Made by a program: the position numbers and the translations under genes
The notes under the pieces: generated by a model
The model's input: only the letters and a program-made list of their open reading frames with translations
What the model was told of the DNA's origin: nothing
The model's database searches: none
DNA from: Candidatus Sulfotelmatobacter sp.
GTDB taxonomy: Bacteria > Pseudomonadota > Alphaproteobacteria > Elsterales > Elsteraceae
Direction: 5' to 3'
NCBI GenBank assembly: GCA_035507915.1
Contig: DATJNS010000500.1
Location: forward strand, 657-24,656
Length of the DNA: 24,000 nucleotides
Shown here: in pieces, positions 6,696 through 13,672 of the stretch
How positions within the stretch are numbered: the first letter of the stretch is position 1
Layout: each line of letters begins with the position of its first letter

Positions 6696-7096
6696 CGACG
6701 GCGGTCGACACCAGTCTCGTCGTCGCCGCCTTCGCGTCCTGGCACGAGCGACATGAGGTCGCCCGTCGGGTGTTGGATGGCGGCGTACGTCTCGTCGAAC
6801 ATTGCGCGCTGGAGACGTATTCGGTGCTGACGCGCTTGCCGCCGCCGCATCGGGTTCCCGGTGGCCTGGTTCGGGCGTTCCTTGACGTTCGTTTCCCCCA
6901 ACCGTTTCTACGGTTGAGCGCACGGGCTTACCGGACTTTCGTGTCGACGCTGGCCGAGCGAGGGGTCAGCGGCGGCGCCGCGTACGATGCCTTGGTCGCT
7001 GCGACGGTGGCAAACCACAGAGCCGACCTCGTCAGCTGCGATCGACGTGCCGCCGGGATCTACGAACGGTACGGCGTCAAGGCTCGGCTTCTGTAG
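6692..7096 (+). CDS. vapC: PIN-domain ribonuclease toxin (VapC-type)
   Basis: 134 aa with the PIN acidic pattern: D6 (AVDTS), E in HCALETYSVLTR, D in AAYDALVAA, and D in VSCDRR. Translationally coupled to the antitoxin gene. Confidence 0.8.
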   Translation: MTTAVDTSLVVAAFASWHERHEVARRVLDGGVRLVEHCALETYSVLTRLPPPHRVPGGLVRAFLDVRFPQPFLRLSARAYRTFVSTLAERGVSGGAAYDALVAATVANHRADLVSCDRRAAGIYERYGVKARLL

Positions 7097-7173: not shown

Positions 7174-7282
7174 TCGGCATGACGGAGGATCTTCAGACCA
7201 TGGCCCGATCGGGCGGATGGACGGCGGACGCGTGGTGCGGACCACGGGAGAGGGCCTGCATTCCGCCTGCTGGAACAGGGCA

Positions 7283-7302
7283 TGTCGCGCTGGCGCGACG
7301 CC
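7283..7302. promoter_or_regulatory. conserved 20-bp box, copy 1, containing the perfect palindrome GTCGCGC-TG-GCGCGAC
   Basis: TGTCGCGCTGGCGCGACGCC lies 63 nt upstream of the first CoA-transferase ATG. It is 18/20 identical to the box at 8591-8610. The flanking sequence is not similar. Confidence 0.4.
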
Positions 7303-7365
7303 GCTTCTTGGTCGTGCCGGATCGGCGGTGCTAGGCTGGTCGGCGACCCATCGGGAGGAACGCGC

Positions 7366-8562
7366 ATGAGCCGGGCCCTAGACGGCATCCGCATCATCGA
7401 CATGACGCACAACCAGGCGGGCCCCGCCTGCGCCCAGATCCTGGGCTTTCTGGGCGCCGACGTGATCAAGCTCGAGGAGCCCAAGGGCGGCGACGTCGCA
7501 CGCACCAACCTGCGCGACAAGGCCAACAGCGACAGCCTGTTCTTTCTGTTCTTCAATGCCAACAAGCGCAGCCTGACCCTCAACCTCAAGACCGACGACG
7601 GCAAGGCGCTGTTCAAGAAGGTGATCGAACAGTCCGACGTGCTGCTGGAGAATTTCGGGCCGGGCGCGCTCGACCGGCTCGGCCTCGGCTACGACACGCT
7701 GTCGAAGCTCAACCCGCGACTGATCTACGCGACCATCAAGGGCTTCGGGACGTATGGGCCGTACAGTGGATTCAAGAGCTTCGAGCCGATCGCCCAGGCG
7801 ATGGGCGGCGCGATGGGCGTCACCGGCTTTCCCGACAATCCGCCGACTTACGTCTTCCCGGCGATCGGCGACAGCGGCACCGGCATGCACATGGCGATCG
7901 GCATCCTGGCCGCGCTCGAGCAGCGCCACCAGACCGGGCGCGGCCAGCATGTCGAGGTGTCGATGCAGGACGCCGTCGTCAACCTCGTGCGCGTCAGCCT
8001 GCGCGACCACCAGCGCTACGGCCATCCGCCGCCGCGCGTCGGCAACCAGCTCGGCCGCACCGTGCCGGGCACGACCTATCCGTGCGCGCCCGGCGGTCCC
8101 AACGATTACGTCTACATCTTCTCGCAGCCGCAGATGTGGCCCGCGGTCGTCAAGACCCTGGGCGAGCCCGCGCTCGCCGACGATCCGCGTTTCAAGACGC
8201 CGGAGCTGCGCTGGGAGAACCGCGCCGCGCTCGACGGCATCGTCGCGGCCTGGACGCGCCAGCGCAGCAAGCACGAGGTGCTGCGCCTGATGGGCGAAGC
8301 CGGCGTGCCGTGCGGCGCCTGTCTCGATACCGGCGAGGTGCTCAACGATCCGCATCTCAAGGCGCGCGACATGATCGTCGACGTCGACTACCCGACGCGT
8401 GGCACCTATCAGACCGTCGGTTGCCCGATCAAGCTGTCGGACTCGCCCGCCGAGGTGACGCGCCCGCCGATGCTCGGCGAGCACACCGACGCGCTGCTCG
8501 AGAATTTGTGCGGCGTCGGTCCGGACGAGCTCAAGCGCCTGCACGATACCGGCGTCGTCTAG
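7366..8562 (+). CDS. family III (CaiB/BaiF) CoA-transferase, formyl-CoA-transferase (Frc)-like paralog 1
   Basis: From ATG 7366 (SD GGGAGGA at 7353-7359): MSRALDGIRIIDMTHNQAGPACAQILGFLGADVIKLE...ENFGPGALDRLGLGY...AIGDSGTGMH...GEHTDALL...LHDTGVV. It is collinear by eye with Oxalobacter Frc as I remember it, including the catalytic Asp context (GDSxxGMH). The 28-codon upstream extension of tracked ORF 7282 has no family counterpart. Confidence 0.88.
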   Translation: MSRALDGIRIIDMTHNQAGPACAQILGFLGADVIKLEEPKGGDVARTNLRDKANSDSLFFLFFNANKRSLTLNLKTDDGKALFKKVIEQSDVLLENFGPGALDRLGLGYDTLSKLNPRLIYATIKGFGTYGPYSGFKSFEPIAQAMGGAMGVTGFPDNPPTYVFPAIGDSGTGMHMAIGILAALEQRHQTGRGQHVEVSMQDAVVNLVRVSLRDHQRYGHPPPRVGNQLGRTVPGTTYPCAPGGPNDYVYIFSQPQMWPAVVKTLGEPALADDPRFKTPELRWENRAALDGIVAAWTRQRSKHEVLRLMGEAGVPCGACLDTGEVLNDPHLKARDMIVDVDYPTRGTYQTVGCPIKLSDSPAEVTRPPMLGEHTDALLENLCGVGPDELKRLHDTGVV

Positions 8563-8590
8563 CTTTCCAGTTGGAGGCGGTCGCCCGGCG

Positions 8591-8610
8591 TGTCACGCTG
8601 GCGCGCCGCC
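8591..8610. promoter_or_regulatory. conserved 20-bp box, copy 2 (degenerate palindrome)
   Basis: TGTCACGCTGGCGCGCCGCC lies 24 nt upstream of the second CoA-transferase ATG, in the 72-nt gap between the paralogs. Confidence 0.35.
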
Positions 8611-8634
8611 AAAATATCAGGGGGAGACGCGAGA

Positions 8635-9867
8635 ATGGACGGGAACACCGCGGTTCAGGGCTGTTTGACCGGCGTCCGGGTGCTCGATTGCACCCAGTTC
8701 GAAGCCGGCCCGTCCTGCACGGAGGCGCTGGCCTGGCTCGGCGCCGAGGTCGTCAAGGTCGAGAACCCGAAGTCGGGCGATCCCGGCCGCGCCTCGTTCG
8801 GCGGCAAGACCAAGGACGCCGATTCCTGGTACTTCCTGCTGTTCAACGCCAACAAGAAGTCGATCGCCGTCAACCTGAAGTCGCCGAGCGGCCTCAAGCT
8901 GGTCAAGGACCTGGCGCGCAAGGCCGACGTCTTCATCGAGAACTTCGCGCCGGGCGCGATCGAGCGGCTCGGGCTCGGCTACGACGTGCTGAAGGCGCTC
9001 AACCCGGGCATCATCTACGCGCAGGTGAAGGGCTTCGGCGAGGGCAGCCCGTACGAGAAGAACCTGGCGTTCGACATGATCGCGCAGGCCTGCGGCGGCG
9101 TCATGAGCATCACGGGCGAGCGCGACGGCCGGCCGAACAAGCCCGGCCCGACCTTGGGCGACACCGGCACCGGCATGCTGATGGCGATCAGCATCCTGGG
9201 CGCGCTCTATCGGCGCCAGGCGACCGGGCAGGGCCAGCGCCTCGCGGTCGCGATGCAGGACGCCATGCTGCACTACATCCGCGTCGCCTTCGCCACCACG
9301 GCGCTCAACGGCAAGCCGGCGATCCGCAACGGCCCCAAGACGATCTCGCCGCCCAACCCGCCGGTCGGCATCTATCCCTGCAAGGGCGGCGGCCCCAACG
9401 ATTACGTCTACGTCTACACCAGCCGCGCCAACCCCGAGCACTGGAAGCGCCTCCTGCAGGTCGTGGGTCGCGAGGACCTGATCGGCGACCCGCGTTACGA
9501 TACGCCGCAGGCGCGCGTCGAGCGCGAGGCCGAGGTCGACGAGATCATCGCGTCGTGGACGAGGCAGCGCACGAAGCACGAAGCCATGAAGCTGATCGGC
9601 GCAGCGGGCGTCCCGTCCGGTGCGGTCAACGACACGCTCGAGCTGCAGAACGATCCCGACTTCGAGCGGCGCGGCATCATGCAGACGATCCAGCATCCGG
9701 TTGCCGGGCCGTTCAAGATGCCGACCTGGCCGGTGCGCCACGACGGCGCGCCCCTCAAGGTCCAACCGGCGCCGCTGCTCGGCCAGCACAACGCCGAGGT
9801 GCTCGCCGACTGGCTGGGTCTGAGCGCCGGCGACGTCGAAGGCCTGCGCAAGGAAGGCGCGCTCTAG
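8635..9867 (+). CDS. family III (CaiB/BaiF) CoA-transferase, paralog 2
   Basis: From ATG 8635 (SD GGGGGAG at 8620-8626): MDGNTAVQGCLTGVRVLDCTQFEAGPSCTEALAWLGAEVVKVE...ENFAPGAIERLGLGY...TLGDTGTGML...GQHNAEVL. It has the same architecture as paralog 1 and retains the Asp in GDTGTGM. Confidence 0.88.
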   Translation: MDGNTAVQGCLTGVRVLDCTQFEAGPSCTEALAWLGAEVVKVENPKSGDPGRASFGGKTKDADSWYFLLFNANKKSIAVNLKSPSGLKLVKDLARKADVFIENFAPGAIERLGLGYDVLKALNPGIIYAQVKGFGEGSPYEKNLAFDMIAQACGGVMSITGERDGRPNKPGPTLGDTGTGMLMAISILGALYRRQATGQGQRLAVAMQDAMLHYIRVAFATTALNGKPAIRNGPKTISPPNPPVGIYPCKGGGPNDYVYVYTSRANPEHWKRLLQVVGREDLIGDPRYDTPQARVEREAEVDEIIASWTRQRTKHEAMKLIGAAGVPSGAVNDTLELQNDPDFERRGIMQTIQHPVAGPFKMPTWPVRHDGAPLKVQPAPLLGQHNAEVLADWLGLSAGDVEGLRKEGAL

Positions 9868-9878
9868 CGACGACGTAG

Positions 9879-9913
9879 GGGCGCGCTCGCCACTGGTGCG
9901 AACGCGCCCTTTG
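9879..9913 (+). terminator. intrinsic terminator-like hairpin after the CoA-transferase pair
   Basis: GGGCGCG-C-TCGC (9879-9890), loop CACTGGT, then GCGA-A-CGCGCCC (9898-9909), followed by TTTG. Starts 12 nt after stop 9867. Confidence 0.6.
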
Positions 9914-9921
9914 AAAAATGA

Positions 9922-9958
9922 CTCCCTCCCTCCTTGTGGGGGAGGGTCGGGGAGGGGG
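9922..9958. repeat. left G/C-rich inverted repeat flanking the DUF559 gene
   Basis: CTCCCTCCCTCCTTGTGGGGGAGGGTCGGGGAGGGGG. Its reverse complement matches 10294-10320 at 26 of 27 positions. It contains an internal imperfect hairpin (CCCTCC-TTGT-GGGGGAGGG). Confidence 0.85.
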
Positions 9959-9959
9959 C

Positions 9960-10292
9960 ATGAGCTCGCCAAAGGCCCGCGAGCTGCGCATGAACATGAC
10001 CGACGCCGAACGGCGGCTGTGGGCGAGGCTCCGGCGGAAGCAGCTCAATGGGCATCGGTTTCGTCGGCAAGTTCCAATTGGCCCTTACTTCGCGGACTTC
10101 GCCTGCTTTTCCGCTCGACTGGTCATCGAGGTCGACGGCACGGAACACGATCTTGAAAGCGCATACGAGCAGGCGCGCACGGCGCGATTAGAGCGTGATG
10201 GCTTCCACGTACTGCGTTATTGGAATGAGGATGTGCTTAAGTCCACGGACGAAGTGGTCGAGGACATTTGGCGCCACTTGGCTGCACGATGA
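9960..10292 (+). CDS. DUF559 / Vsr-like (PD-(D/E)xK fold) endonuclease domain protein
   Basis: MSSPKARELRMNMTDAERRLWARLRRKQLNGHRFRRQVPIGPYFADFACFSARLVIEVDGTEHD...RDGFHVLRYWNEDV... is the typical DUF559 pattern (AE..LW..LR, FRRQ, Y.DF, IEVDG..H, R....G..VLR..N..V). The tracked ORF starts at 9918, but those 14 extra codons are just the left repeat read as protein (PSLLVGEGRGGG). G+C is 60% and 52% in lines 10141-10200 and 10201-10260, against 75% in a core-gene line. Confidence 0.85.
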   Translation: MSSPKARELRMNMTDAERRLWARLRRKQLNGHRFRRQVPIGPYFADFACFSARLVIEVDGTEHDLESAYEQARTARLERDGFHVLRYWNEDVLKSTDEVVEDIWRHLAAR

Positions 10293-10337
10293 CCCCCCAC
10301 CCCGACCCTCCCCCACAAGGGGGGAGGGGGAGGGAGG
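10293..10337. repeat. right G/C-rich inverted repeat flanking the DUF559 gene
   Basis: CCCCCCACCCCGACCCTCCCCCACAAGGGGGGAGGGGGAGGGAGG starts immediately after the DUF559 stop. It contains an internal hairpin, CCCTCCCCC-ACAA-(G)GGGGGAGGG. Confidence 0.85.
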
Positions 10338-10382
10338 TTGAGGTCGCGGCAGTACCGGATGCAGCACGGACGTGCCTGAGGG

Positions 10383-11318
10383 TCAGTCGGCGAAGGCGGC
10401 GAGCAGCTCCTCGATCGCCTTGAGCTGATTGCCGGCGGCCGAGCTCGGCACCAGGATGGGCGTGGCGACGCCGGCGGCGCGCCACGCCTCGACCGCGTCG
10501 CGCACCGCGGTCTTCGAGCCCGAGATCGTGACGTCGGCGAGCCAGCGGTCGCTCAGGCAGCGCGGCACGTCGTCGAGACGCTGCGCGGCGATCGCGCGTT
10601 CGACCGCCGCCATCTCGTCGCCGTAGCCGGCTTCCTTCCAGTAGTTGCGGTAGTTCGGCAGCATCGCGTAGTGGGTCAGCGACCGTCGGTGCACCGCTTT
10701 CGCCGCCTCGAGATCGCCGGTCACGCAGGTCGGGATCATGTTGCCGATGAAGAAGGCGGGATCGGCGCGCTTGGCGGGCGGCAGCGCCGCCAGCGAGTCG
10801 GCCATGTGGGAGCGGCAGCCGTTGGCGAACACCAGCCCGTCGGCGAGCTCGCCCGCCAGCGCGATCATCTTCTTGCGCAGGGTGGCGACGATGATCGGCG
10901 GCAGCGCGCCCAGGTTCTGGTGGCCGCGTAGTTTGGCGATGAAGTCGCGCGTGTCGGCGAGCGGATTGCCGGGCTTGGCGTCCCAGCGCACGTGCCCCGG
11001 CGCGTGGCTGACGCCGATGCCGAGGCGGAAGCGTCCGCCCGACACTTCGTGCAGGAAGGCGGCGCTATGCGCAAAGTCCCAGACGCTGCGCGAATAGATC
11101 GGCGCGATCGCAGTGCCGAACACGATGCGCTCGGTGGCGAGCGCCAGCGCATCGCAGGTCGCGAGGTTGCCGAACAGGCTGGGCACGTAGATGCCGGCGA
11201 AGCCGCGGCGGTCGTACTCGCGCGCGATCTCCAGGGTGGCGCGGCGGCGGCCGGGTACCGCGACCAGGCTCACGGCGGGCAGAGAGGGCTGGGGCATCGC
11301 GCTACCGATCGATGGCAC
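10383..11318 (-). CDS. LLM-class (luciferase-like) flavin-dependent oxidoreductase
   Basis: 311 aa. ...EIAREYDRRGFAGIYVPSLFGN...GGRFRLGIGVSHAPGHVRW... and the overall TIM-barrel LLM layout are recognisable by eye. An alternative start is the ATG at 11297 (MPQPS...). Confidence 0.75.
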   Translation of the reverse strand: MPSIGSAMPQPSLPAVSLVAVPGRRRATLEIAREYDRRGFAGIYVPSLFGNLATCDALALATERIVFGTAIAPIYSRSVWDFAHSAAFLHEVSGGRFRLGIGVSHAPGHVRWDAKPGNPLADTRDFIAKLRGHQNLGALPPIIVATLRKKMIALAGELADGLVFANGCRSHMADSLAALPPAKRADPAFFIGNMIPTCVTGDLEAAKAVHRRSLTHYAMLPNYRNYWKEAGYGDEMAAVERAIAAQRLDDVPRCLSDRWLADVTISGSKTAVRDAVEAWRAAGVATPILVPSSAAGNQLKAIEELLAAFAD

Positions 11319-11914: not shown

Positions 11915-12307
11915 GTGGCCAGCTTCACGTACGACCACGTCCACTTGCGCAGCCCGAACCCGGAAGCGACCGCGCTGTGGTACGAGAAAATGTTTGGCGC
12001 GGTGGTCAAGCGGTCGGTGCAGTCCGACGGCCGCAAGCGCGTCGATCTCGATCTCGGCGGCATGACGGTCTTCATCGCGCCGGTGATCGCCGACAAGGGC
12101 ACGGCGTCGCCGCCGGAGGCGCCCTATCTCGGGCTCGAGCATCTCGGCCTGCGCGTCGACGGCATCGACGCGGCGGTCGCCGAGCTCAAGCGCAAGGGCG
12201 CGGAGTTCACCATGGAGCCGACCACGATCCGGCCCGGCGTGCGCATCGCTTTCCTGCGCGGCCCGGAGAACGTCTCGATCGAGATCCTCGACCGCAACGC
12301 CAAGTGA
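11915..12307 (+). CDS. VOC family protein (glyoxalase/bleomycin-resistance/dioxygenase fold)
   Basis: 130 aa. FTYDHVHLRSPNPEATALWYEKMFGA... plus a second-half LEHLGLRVDGIDAAVAELKRKGAEF... gives the typical paired beta-alpha-beta-beta-beta VOC modules. GTG start. Confidence 0.8.
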   Translation: MASFTYDHVHLRSPNPEATALWYEKMFGAVVKRSVQSDGRKRVDLDLGGMTVFIAPVIADKGTASPPEAPYLGLEHLGLRVDGIDAAVAELKRKGAEFTMEPTTIRPGVRIAFLRGPENVSIEILDRNAK

Positions 12308-12368: not shown

Positions 12369-12386
12369 CCTCTCCCGAGGGAGAGG
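12369..12386. repeat. second short palindrome in the convergent gap
   Basis: CCTCTCCC-GA-GGGAGAGG, lying 12 nt from the MFS stop (12398-12400). Confidence 0.4.
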
Positions 12387-12397
12387 TGGCAGCTACC

Positions 12398-13672
12398 TCA
12401 AGCGACGACCAGCTCGGCCGTGATCTCCTTGCCATGGGTCTCCGGTCCGAGCAGCAGGGCGAACACGAAGCTCGCGCAGCCGACAGTCGTGCCGATCAGC
12501 ATCGGGATGGCGAAGCCGAAGCCGTGGTCGACCGCGAAGTAGGTCAGGACCGGCGCCACCAAGCCGCCGAAGATGGCGCCCTGGTGGTAGCAGAAGCCGG
12601 TCGCCGTGCCGCGCACCTCGGTCGGGAACCGCTCGCACAGATAGCTCGGGTTCTGGCCGTAGATCGCGCCGGCGAACGCCGCCTGCAGGATGAAGCCGGC
12701 CGAGATCCACAGGAAGTCCGTGGTCAAGAGATAGAGCGGCGCGACCGCGATGCCCATCAGCGCGGGAATGATCATCGACCACCGCCGCCCGATGCGATCG
12801 GCCAAATAGCCCCAAAAGCCCATGGCCAGGAAGCCGAGAGCGTTCGCGAACATCAGCGGCGTTGCGACCAAGGCCGGACTCAAATTGAGGTCCTTCTGCA
12901 GGTGCGTCGCGAACATCGCCCAGATCGAATAGTAGACGACGAAGCCGCTCGCCATCCACCAGCACGCCGTCAGTGTGTTGCCGATCATGCCGCGCTTGAA
13001 GATTTTCAGCAGCGGCACGCGTACTTGGCGTTCTTGCTCGCGCTGCTGCTTCCGGTTCTCGAGCCACACCTCGGGCTCCTTGACGAAGAAGCGGATGTAG
13101 ACCACCGCGAACGCCGGCAGCACGCCGAGCATCAGGAGGCCGCGCCAGCCGATCGAGTTGAAGAGCAGGCCGTAGGCGGCGCTCGACAGCAGGAAGCCGA
13201 GGTTCCACGAGCCTTGCAGCACGCCGCTCATGAAGCCGCGCGAGCGCGTCGGCCATTGCTCCATGGCGAGCGAGGCGCCGGCCGGCCATTCCGCGCCCAT
13301 GAAGATGCCGAGGAGCGCGCGGAAGAAGAACAGGAACGTGAAGGTCGGCGAGAAGCCGGCGATGAAGTTGCAGGCCGAGTAACCCAGGATCGAGAGCATC
13401 AGCGGTCCCTTGCGGCCGATCCGGTCGGCCACCCAGCCCGACCCGGTCGCGCCCACCAGCCGCAGCCACAGCGTGACGGTGAACAGGATCGCCACGTCGG
13501 TCAGCGGGATGCCGAATTCTTTGGCGATCGGCACCATGAGGAGCAGGAAAATGGTGAAATCGAAGGCATCCAGGGTCCAACCAAGCCAAGCGGCCACATA
13601 AGCCAGCCACTGTTCTTTCGTTGGTTCTTTCCACCAAGGGACTTGGCGCGCGTTCGCAGCGGCAATCGTCAT
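12398..13672 (-). CDS. MFS transporter, NanT/sialate:H+ symporter-like family (organic anion)
   Basis: 424 aa, about 12 TM segments. The N-terminus ...EQWLAYVAAWLGWTLDAFDFTIFLLLMVPIAKEFG... and the loop ADRIGRKGPL parallel E. coli NanT (RAFSAAWLGYLLDGFDF..., GDRYGRR) as I recall it. SD GGGAGG is present upstream. Confidence 0.85.
   Translation of the reverse strand: MTIAAANARQVPWWKEPTKEQWLAYVAAWLGWTLDAFDFTIFLLLMVPIAKEFGIPLTDVAILFTVTLWLRLVGATGSGWVADRIGRKGPLMLSILGYSACNFIAGFSPTFTFLFFFRALLGIFMGAEWPAGASLAMEQWPTRSRGFMSGVLQGSWNLGFLLSSAAYGLLFNSIGWRGLLMLGVLPAFAVVYIRFFVKEPEVWLENRKQQREQERQVRVPLLKIFKRGMIGNTLTACWWMASGFVVYYSIWAMFATHLQKDLNLSPALVATPLMFANALGFLAMGFWGYLADRIGRRWSMIIPALMGIAVAPLYLLTTDFLWISAGFILQAAFAGAIYGQNPSYLCERFPTEVRGTATGFCYHQGAIFGGLVAPVLTYFAVDHGFGFAIPMLIGTTVGCASFVFALLLGPETHGKEITAELVVA

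Follow-up and report, generated by a model that had tools for sequence, protein, structure and literature searches.

A DUF559 nuclease gene framed by inverted BoxC/PIT repeats as a candidate repeat-and-enzyme unit of many bacterial phyla

Introduction

Why should a small nuclease gene lie, to the base, between two inverted copies of a structured repeat, and do the gene and the repeats belong together? This question is raised by a 24,000-nucleotide stretch of Candidatus Sulfotelmatobacter sp. (Alphaproteobacteria; GenBank assembly GCA_035507915.1, contig DATJNS010000500.1, positions 657 to 24,656; the whole of this stretch is referred to as the window), in which an open reading frame (ORF) of the DUF559 family at positions 9960-10292 is bracketed by a pair of inverted repeats. 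A reading of the letters alone, here called the original prediction, had proposed that this cassette resembles the units in which REP-associated tyrosine transposases (RAYTs) are flanked by repetitive extragenic palindromic (REP) elements, with a different enzyme at its centre, or that the flanking repeats pair in the mRNA and thereby gate expression of the nuclease.

DUF559 is a very large family without an assigned role, comprising 22,956 clusters at 50% identity (E of 1e-3 or better). Repeats of the kind found here have been described as BoxC, as potential intrastrand triplex (PIT) elements (Hoyne and Maher 2000, 2002) and as TM or TMECO (Holder et al. 2015, PMC4666352), and the same repeat class was independently termed hairpin/G-quadruplex switch (HPGQ) (bioRxiv 032615). 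They have been known since the 1990s and are conserved across hundreds of genomes without an assigned function or partner protein; Escherichia coli K-12 carries 23 copies, such as CCCTCGCCCCTCTGGGGAGAGGGTTAGGGTGAGGGG, which form inverted pairs at five sites, and the authors of that study reported "no consensus function of flanking genes" and no link to mobile elements (PMC4666352). The words "endonuclease", "DUF" and "ycjD" do not occur in its main text, nor do "endonuclease", "DUF559" and "ycjD" in the G-quadruplex preprint (bioRxiv 032615), and among the open-access papers that we searched we found none linking the DUF559 family to BoxC/PIT repeats. The gene family and the repeats are each already known.

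On balance, we favour the reading that the cassette belongs to a very large, cross-phylum class of units, in which a DUF559 gene of ~110 amino acids (aa) is framed, with tails pointing inward, by inverted BoxC/PIT/TM elements, and that it works like REP/RAYT systems, with a Vsr/EDxHD-type nuclease acting on the folded repeats.

Results

A DUF559 gene fits exactly between two inverted repeats

A repeat search placed the two arms of the cassette at 9924-9958 and 10294-10328. They are inverted, 35 nucleotides (nt) long, 94% complementary and 335 nt apart, and they constitute the strongest inverted repeat of the 24-kb window, in which every other pair is at most 85% complementary. The right arm and the reverse-complemented left arm are mismatched at 2 of 35 positions, and the match of the core at 26 of 27 positions, as counted in the original prediction, is correct. 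Two cores, of 23 and 15 nt, have just two copies each in the window, namely those of the cassette (0.00 and 0.17 occurrences expected from shuffles). The left repeat ends at 9958/9959, one base ahead of the ATG at 9960, and the C-run of the right repeat opens at 10293, the next base after the stop codon (10290-10292). The repeat edges adjoin start and stop as had been described. Fold prediction likewise agreed that each arm forms its own separate stem-loop, and the lower G+C content claimed for the ORF was recovered, with 0.56-0.58 across 10060-10299 (within the ORF) versus 0.65-0.75 in the adjoining sequence.

The repeats are three-part elements of the BoxC/PIT type

The left element (9922-9959, + strand) consists of a pyrimidine arm, CCCTCCCTCC (9924-9933), a TTGT loop (9934-9937) and a purine arm, GGGGGAGGG (9938-9946), followed by a TCG spacer and a tail, GGGAGGGGG (9949-9958), that is the purine arm read backwards. 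The right element (10293-10337, inverted, - strand) is the reverse complement of this design, with a C-tail (10293-10303), a GA spacer, a pyrimidine arm (10306-10314), an ACAA loop (10315-10318), a purine arm (10319-10328) and an extra GGAGGGAGG that extends to 10337. Read on their respective strands, the left element gives GGGGGAGGG-TCG-GGGAGGGGG and the right element GGGGGAGGG-TCG-GGGTGGGGG(G). In both, the mirror purine tail lies on the gene side of the purine arm, and the left tail doubles as a GGAGG ribosome-binding site 5 nt ahead of the ATG.

The original prediction had taken the repeats for plain hairpins and had recognised neither the third, mirror segment nor the identity of the repeats with BoxC/PIT/TM (PMC4666352). 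Both arms contain the G+C-rich pyrimidine/purine hairpin of that family, and the third segment is present and places G against G and A or T against A; as judged from sequence, the repeats are members of the known BoxC/PIT/TM intrastrand-triplex motif family. They share with the elements of E. coli and other bacteria the order of a C-rich arm, a short loop, a G-rich arm, 2-3 nt and a mirror G-rich tail in which A or T faces A, and both are frequently arranged as inverted pairs and located at strain-variable loci; the known elements are intergenic and multicopy, and those described here may be so as well. The stem sequence differs, being CCCTCCCCC here and CCCTCKCCC in E. coli. Such an element could adopt an intrastrand purine-motif triplex or, as another fold, a G-quadruplex. 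Rfam returned nothing at gathering score, the top match being a 27.8-bit chance hit to a flavivirus stem-loop.

Gene and repeats are paired across phyla

Scanning an alignment of the family against one genome per species yielded 80 loci, the best matches to one DUF559 subfamily, from Alpha-, Beta-, Gamma- and Deltaproteobacteria, Dehalococcoidia/Chloroflexi, Dormibacterota, Nitrospirae and others. In nearly every one of these loci the motif could be seen ahead of the gene and its reverse complement behind it. With a strict detector that demanded a perfect stem of at least 7 bp, a hairpin was found upstream in 53, downstream in 60, on both sides in 47 and on neither side in 8 of the 74 units with both flanks. 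Hairpins occurred at 6.28 per kb within 150 nt of the DUF559 gene versus 0.116 per kb elsewhere in the loci (ratio 54), and mirror-tail hairpins at 4.33 versus 0.072 per kb (ratio 60), the far-flank background being drawn from loci picked for containing a DUF559 gene. The enrichment next to DUF559 genes, for which the original prediction had asked to look, hence amounts to 54-60 times. A 333-kb metagenomic background, consisting of loci chosen by the neighbouring monooxygenase gene and not by DUF559, contained three mirror-tail elements only, two of which flank the sole DUF559 gene there. In this respect the units depart from published BoxC/PIT repeats: in the window and at the 80 loci a DUF559 gene stands between inverted copies, whereas the BoxC papers report no common flanking gene.

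The pairing is polar. Of the tails, 62 were mirror copies and 8 direct copies of the purine arm, with 26 ties, and a tail lay on the gene-facing side in 116 of 125 flanking elements, the corresponding figure for the outer side being 24 of 122. The two ends of a unit also resemble one another, loops included: the mean local score of a left end against a reverse-complemented right end was 25.8 within units and 13.6 between units (Mann-Whitney p = 3e-24). In most units the right element begins 10-16 nt past the end of the conserved domain, often within the called ORF, while the distance between the left element and the start codon varies across loci from 13 to ~140 nt. At L059 (Anaerolineaceae), two copies in one genome share a ~97% identical block that begins at the left hairpin, is identical over its first ~190 nt and ends a few bases past the right hairpin; their upstream flanks are ~80% identical. 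A weak association between protein and repeat type (identity of 0.508 within a stem class versus 0.489 between classes, 0/2000 permutations) was considered as a sign of co-evolution; the effect is small and confounded by shared ancestry, and it was not used.

An insert of 10-54 nt, mostly a near-perfect stem-loop, separates the purine arm from the tail in 36 of 125 elements, and these stem-loops vary from locus to locus and in many cases also from one end of a unit to the other. Because an unrelated helix that holds the tail beside the hairpin is expected if the three segments must meet in space, the insert-bearing forms would fit a triplex; a G-quadruplex is also compatible. Variants such as GGGGGAAGG...GGATGGGGG have G-tracts of two only, which would fit a triplex better. 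Because the published triplex search took loops of 1-6 nt, it would miss the insert-bearing elements. Examples of this variant were seen at L005, L030, L031, L040, L047, L069, L072 and others.

The protein is a predicted Vsr/EDxHD-like nuclease

The ORF at 9960-10292 (+ strand, 110 aa) matched Pfam DUF559 (PF04480) with E = 6.5e-40, residues 5-107 aligning to profile positions 6-108 of 109; a DUF559 gene exactly between inverted repeats, as originally proposed, is thus present. The only Pfam domains found were DUF559 and MTES_1575, with no transposase domain among them. A profile search of the PDB returned Neisseria gonorrhoeae NGO0050 (3HRL, E = 1e-37) and I-Bth0305I (3R3P, E = 5.6e-4). An AlphaFold2 model (predicted local distance difference test score, pLDDT, of 85) was matched by Foldseek to 3HRL (template modelling scores of 0.75/0.87) and to the catalytic domain of 3R3P (0.68/0.75, E = 6e-4), ahead of Vsr (1VSR, E = 0.04), and the order was the same by profile search. 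Across 26 aligned homologues, among them the window protein, residues D46, E57, D59, G60 and H63 do not vary. The profile matches and the model identify the protein as a putative Vsr/EDxHD-like PD-(D/E)xK nuclease with a restriction-endonuclease-like alpha/beta fold; among characterised relatives, the homing endonuclease I-Bth0305I is nearest by both sequence and fold, in its catalytic domain, and enzymes of the EDxHD homing family have themselves been described as Vsr-like (PMC3384342).

A tripeptide PPP occurs within the last 16 residues of 45 of the 120 listed homologues, and homologues just 55-70% identical end in PHPNPPPQGGRE, PPPRPSPARGEGE or PPP. These P-rich tails are read-through translation of the downstream repeat. 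In the orthologous locus L001 (455-470, corresponding to 10288-10295 of the window), a 1-base insertion and a substitution change GATGA to GATGCG, so that the stop is lost and the ORF runs into the right repeat, yielding 124 aa that end in ...CAPHPNPPPQGGRE; this stop loss shows the origin of the P-rich tails in annotated homologues. Some predicted proteins contain two or three DUF559 stretches (P0121, P0122, P0123, P0157, P0182 and P0253), and such proteins may have arisen from tandem units joined when translation ran through the repeats. Two or three DUF559 copies, in tandem or a few kb apart, were also observed at L041 (6506-7461), L022 and L059.

The cassette is gained or lost at a conserved site

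On one side of the cassette a CoA-transferase family III gene stops at 9867; on the other lies, in convergent orientation, a gene for a luciferase-like monooxygenase (Pfam), whose stop at 10383 had been placed correctly. Two metagenomic orthologues, L001 and L002, have ~90% DNA identity to the window, the same neighbours and the cassette. Against these, the ratio of nonsynonymous to synonymous substitution rates (dN/dS) of the ORF is 0.07-0.10, and the repeats are 92-95% identical (left element 92-95%, right element 93-95%), compared with 67-76% for the adjoining spacers (left flank 67-74%, right 75-76%); on these values, gene and repeats are both conserved under selection at this locus, and this copy is taken to be functional.

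A metagenome scan with the neighbouring monooxygenase gave three further relevant loci. The cassette is likewise present in L085, which has 99.8% DNA identity to the window. It is absent from L086, with DNA identities of 98.5% and 95.7% and a CoA-transferase protein that is 100% identical, and from L087 (84-88%). Presence of the cassette at 90% and 99.8% identity and its absence at 96-98% and 86% require no fewer than two events of gain, loss or allelic replacement within this shallow clade. Window positions 9872 and 10383 are just 4 nt apart in L086, and the gained-or-lost segment accordingly spans 9873-10382, ~510 bp here versus 4 nt there. We considered homing into a pre-existing repeat pair; since the empty site (TAGCGACGCCGCTCAGTCGG) has no BoxC/PIT motif, this was ruled out for this locus.

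Repeats occur without the gene

The repeat is not confined to this locus, a finding that would have spoken against the original prediction. In addition to the family members across phyla there is an exact copy: a phage contig (L003; IMG/VR, IMGVR_UViG_3300047160_007320) carries at 6900-6960 a solo copy that is identical over 42 nt to the right arm and sits between a 372-aa ORF, judged by eye to be a portal gene, and the next ORF. No DUF559 match at E of 1e-5 or better was found on this 8.1-kb contig. Solo elements, inverted doublets and arrays are also present among the 80 loci, for instance at L082, L046, L068 and L042; in the 24-kb window the two flanking copies are the only ones. The gene-less arrays at L082 (5323-6465 and 8817-9039, Dehalococcoidia) and L046 (14261-14969, Algiphilus) are alternating or direct, with a regular spacing of ~50-175 nt.

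E. coli offers a case in which gene and repeats are both present. YcjD, like NGO0050 (3HRL), is a stand-alone DUF559 protein of the same family as the window protein, which scored 106 bits on the YcjD model (NCBIfam PRK09767), under the equivalog cut-off of 218. The stop codon of ycjD overlaps a degenerate pyrimidine/purine hairpin, and a full BoxC lies ~170 nt 3' of the gene, beside fabI; in comparison with the unit described here, the E. coli copy has lost its left element. BoxC was first described next to fabI, which was then called envM. Between ycjD and the full BoxC of E. coli K-12 (L084, 5200-5420) there is also a truncated second copy of the 3' end of the DUF559 ORF (METVLENIRQGLNR...), a sequence that suggests a past tandem arrangement or a rearrangement.

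Among 5,426 complete E. coli genomes, 3,378 carry one copy of ycjD and the rest none, while BoxC/TMECO copies number 1-33 per genome (median 19). Some clinical isolates have 1-7 BoxC copies, none of them perfect. The presence or absence of ycjD is tied to exchange with the eefRABCD island (PMC12817139), and because strains lacking ycjD carry that island at the site, ycjD was set aside as a clean empty-site test. The BoxC doublet between hrpB and mrcB, with tails inward and a 16-nt spacer, is missing as a ~100-bp block in some strains; a DUF559 gene inside this pair was not seen in the E. coli strains compared, just presence or absence of the ~100-bp pair.

Discussion

Generality, polar and coupled structure, gain and loss, and the existence of gene-less copies are most simply explained if the gene and its repeats form one unit from which gene-less derivatives exist. 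From the layout, the selection on both parts and the kinship with homing endonucleases, we infer that the nuclease acts on the folded repeats. In the mechanism that we propose, the nuclease would recognise the folded repeat in single-stranded or torsionally stressed DNA and nick there, and repair or copying of the break would then gain, lose or homogenise the whole cassette. The same process would operate on gene-less single and paired copies and would parallel RAYTs with their REP/REPIN sequences or a free-standing homing endonuclease gene; this mode of copy spread is conjectural. In addition, where transcription continues from the upstream CoA-transferase gene into the unit, the arms may pair in the mRNA, which would hide the ribosome-binding site and the AUG and keep the level of the nuclease low. 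Such pairing is known from IS10 and IS50, the ends of which pair in read-through mRNA (fold-back inhibition). The predicted mRNA fold does contain a panhandle that buries the ribosome-binding site and the AUG (z = -5.6), and gating by repeat pairing, as raised in the original prediction, is physically plausible for this cassette; because the distance between element and start codon varies across loci, this is not what accounts for the repeats in general.

We advance more tentatively the wider proposal that DUF559 proteins are the missing cognate enzymes of BoxC/PIT, that is, structure-specific nucleases for the intrastrand triplex (or the hairpin/G-quadruplex) that drive gain, loss and spread of the repeats and of their own gene.

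Several observations weigh against the favoured reading. The E. coli motif forms a triplex in vitro, but no stable triplex was detected in vivo (Holder et al., PMC4666352), and earlier work cited there found PIT elements to be without promoter or terminator activity. The 80 loci are best matches to one subfamily and not to DUF559 as a whole. E. coli O157:H7 lacks ycjD and yet its genomes hold 15 BoxC copies, so that repeats persist without the gene, and gene-less pairs have no orientation preference (9 tails-inward versus 8 tails-outward). At the window locus, an empty site in a close relative was found as hoped for, but the missing segment of ~510 bp overshoots each repeat by ~45 nt and is not the repeat-bounded unit of ~415 bp, and neither a target-site duplication nor microhomology was found at the cassette junctions when the window was compared with L086. 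Because the segment is larger and no duplication is present, the repeat ends are not demonstrably the ends of a mobile element. Finally, the closest homologues of this copy are all at the same chromosomal site and the next nearest is 69% identical, so that recent movement is not documented.

A purely regulatory role of the repeats would be a different explanation. They would then act in cis on the nuclease gene, by inhibiting its translation through fold-back, by stabilising its mRNA or by a block at the level of DNA; the protein would have an unrelated job, such as the Vsr-type mismatch nicking proposed for Caulobacter VsrA, and gene-less copies would be decayed cassettes. This would agree with the panhandle that sequesters the ribosome-binding site and AUG, with the G-tail that provides a GGAGG site just before the ATG and with the promoter and terminator scans, which gave no matches and hence no promoter within the unit; moreover, a Caulobacter protein with a DUF559 domain damages DNA when a cytosine methylase is absent (PMC12907096). 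However, the left element lies anywhere from 13 to ~140 nt from the start codon across loci, so that it does not generally overlap the ribosome-binding site, and solo copies and arrays outnumber genes, both in the arrays of L082 and L046 and in E. coli, with its median of 19 copies against one or no ycjD. Purine-motif triplexes are reported not to form in RNA (PMC4666352), so that the conserved mirror tail argues for a structure at the DNA level, and the lack of promoter or terminator activity in PIT elements (PMC4666352) counts against regulation as well. We therefore regard regulation alone as unlikely. Somewhat less credible still is the idea that gene and repeats are independent neighbours, with BoxC/PIT repeats that are propagated by themselves or by the host piling up at the borders of DUF559 genes as a preferred or tolerated insertion site. 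That elements occur without the gene, that BoxC loci are unusually variable and unstable between E. coli strains (PMC4666352) and that E. coli doublets come and go as units would all be expected under such independence. It does not sit well with a right element whose distance from the end of the conserved domain is almost constant at 10-16 nt and that is often inside the ORF, with tails that face the gene in 116 of 125 elements, with two ends that co-vary down to their loops, or with the joint gain or loss of gene and both repeats at this locus, where the repeats are conserved to the same degree as the coding sequence.

A programmed inversion switch, with inverted repeats through which the gene could be flipped with respect to transcription from outside, appears very improbable to us. 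In its favour, a genome-wide screen of inverted repeats found two names over-represented among its predicted inversion targets, "DUF559 domain-containing protein" with an odds ratio of 14.3 and "Endonuclease domain-containing protein" with one of 9.6; both are NCBI product names of the DUF559 family, which the screen lists without further comment (PMC9881135). The same listing is an independent hint for the reading of gene and repeats as one unit. That screen flags inverted-repeat geometry, however, and reports no observed inversions for the family (PMC9881135). The arms here are just 35 nt long, a domain scan found no recombinase or transposase within ~5 kb of the cassette, and all four filled orthologous loci, a small sample, have one orientation.

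As the repeat-and-enzyme unit that we propose, the cassette shares the plan of REP/REPIN elements with their RAYT (TnpA-REP, HUH Y1) or of an IS element with its MITEs. The former comparison goes furthest. Both usually have a single enzyme gene between inverted copies of a short structured repeat, which is also dispersed as singlets and inverted doublets; in both the gene is conserved and is far outnumbered by the repeats. The enzyme here is of the Vsr/EDxHD-type PD-(D/E)xK kind and not a HUH tyrosine transposase; its repeats carry a third mirror strand and lack the GTAG/CGTC tag, and the action on them is putative. Because it has no HUH Y1 domain, the unit is not a member of the REP/RAYT systems and resembles them in layout only. 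The RAYT/REP-style unit of the original prediction thus held up in layout, copies outside the locus, enrichment and empty site, but its enzyme is no RAYT and a target-site duplication is missing.

Insertion sequences (IS) and miniature inverted-repeat transposable elements (MITEs), including IS200/IS605 with palindrome-associated transposable elements (PATEs), also have terminal inverted repeats around a single gene and gene-less derivatives with paired ends; they differ from the present unit, which has no transposase fold and no target-site duplication and in which the gained-or-lost segment exceeds the repeat-bounded span. With the I-Bth0305I/EDxHD homing family (PMC3239194; PMC3384342), the unit shares the conserved catalytic E, D and H and a gene that is present or absent at an otherwise conserved site. 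In contrast to that family, the gene is free-standing, outside an intron or intein, and framed by repeats, the N-terminal DNA-binding region of I-Bth0305I is absent from the protein, and the empty site has no recognisable target.

The tight, polar link across phyla merges two puzzles, a very large protein family without a role and a repeat class without a partner, into one testable hypothesis, for which E. coli, with ycjD and ~20 BoxC copies, is a ready model system. If the hypothesis is true, a second repeat-and-enzyme partnership would exist beside REP/RAYT, independent of it and in many bacterial phyla; intrastrand triplex DNA would have a biological use, and the unit would be the first natural element with ends defined by a triple-helix motif. 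There are also consequences for annotation, since many DUF559 ORFs read through into the repeat and inverted-repeat screens flag DUF559 genes as "inversion targets".

Further features of the locus

Directly 5' of the cassette, two CoA-transferase family III genes lie in tandem (7282-8562 and 8590-9867); their proteins are ~42% identical to each other, and the same tandem pair is also found in the empty-site relative L086. The left spacer contains a poorly conserved G+C-rich inverted repeat, the hairpin GGGCGCGCTCGC / GCGAACGCGCCC (9879-9909, + strand), within the gained-or-lost segment. The original prediction had called a terminator here, at 9879-9913; the 12-bp hairpin has no T-run and was not called by the terminator scan. 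The right spacer (10338-10382), also inside the segment, is not conserved (75-76% identity to L001 and L002) and is absent from L086. A third pyrimidine/purine hairpin of the window, CCTCTCCC-GA-GGGAGAGG (12369-12386), has no mirror tail. It occupies the short gap between a convergent glyoxalase-family gene (ending at 12307) and a gene for a major facilitator superfamily (MFS) transporter (ending at 12398), and it could be a decayed element or an ordinary terminator.

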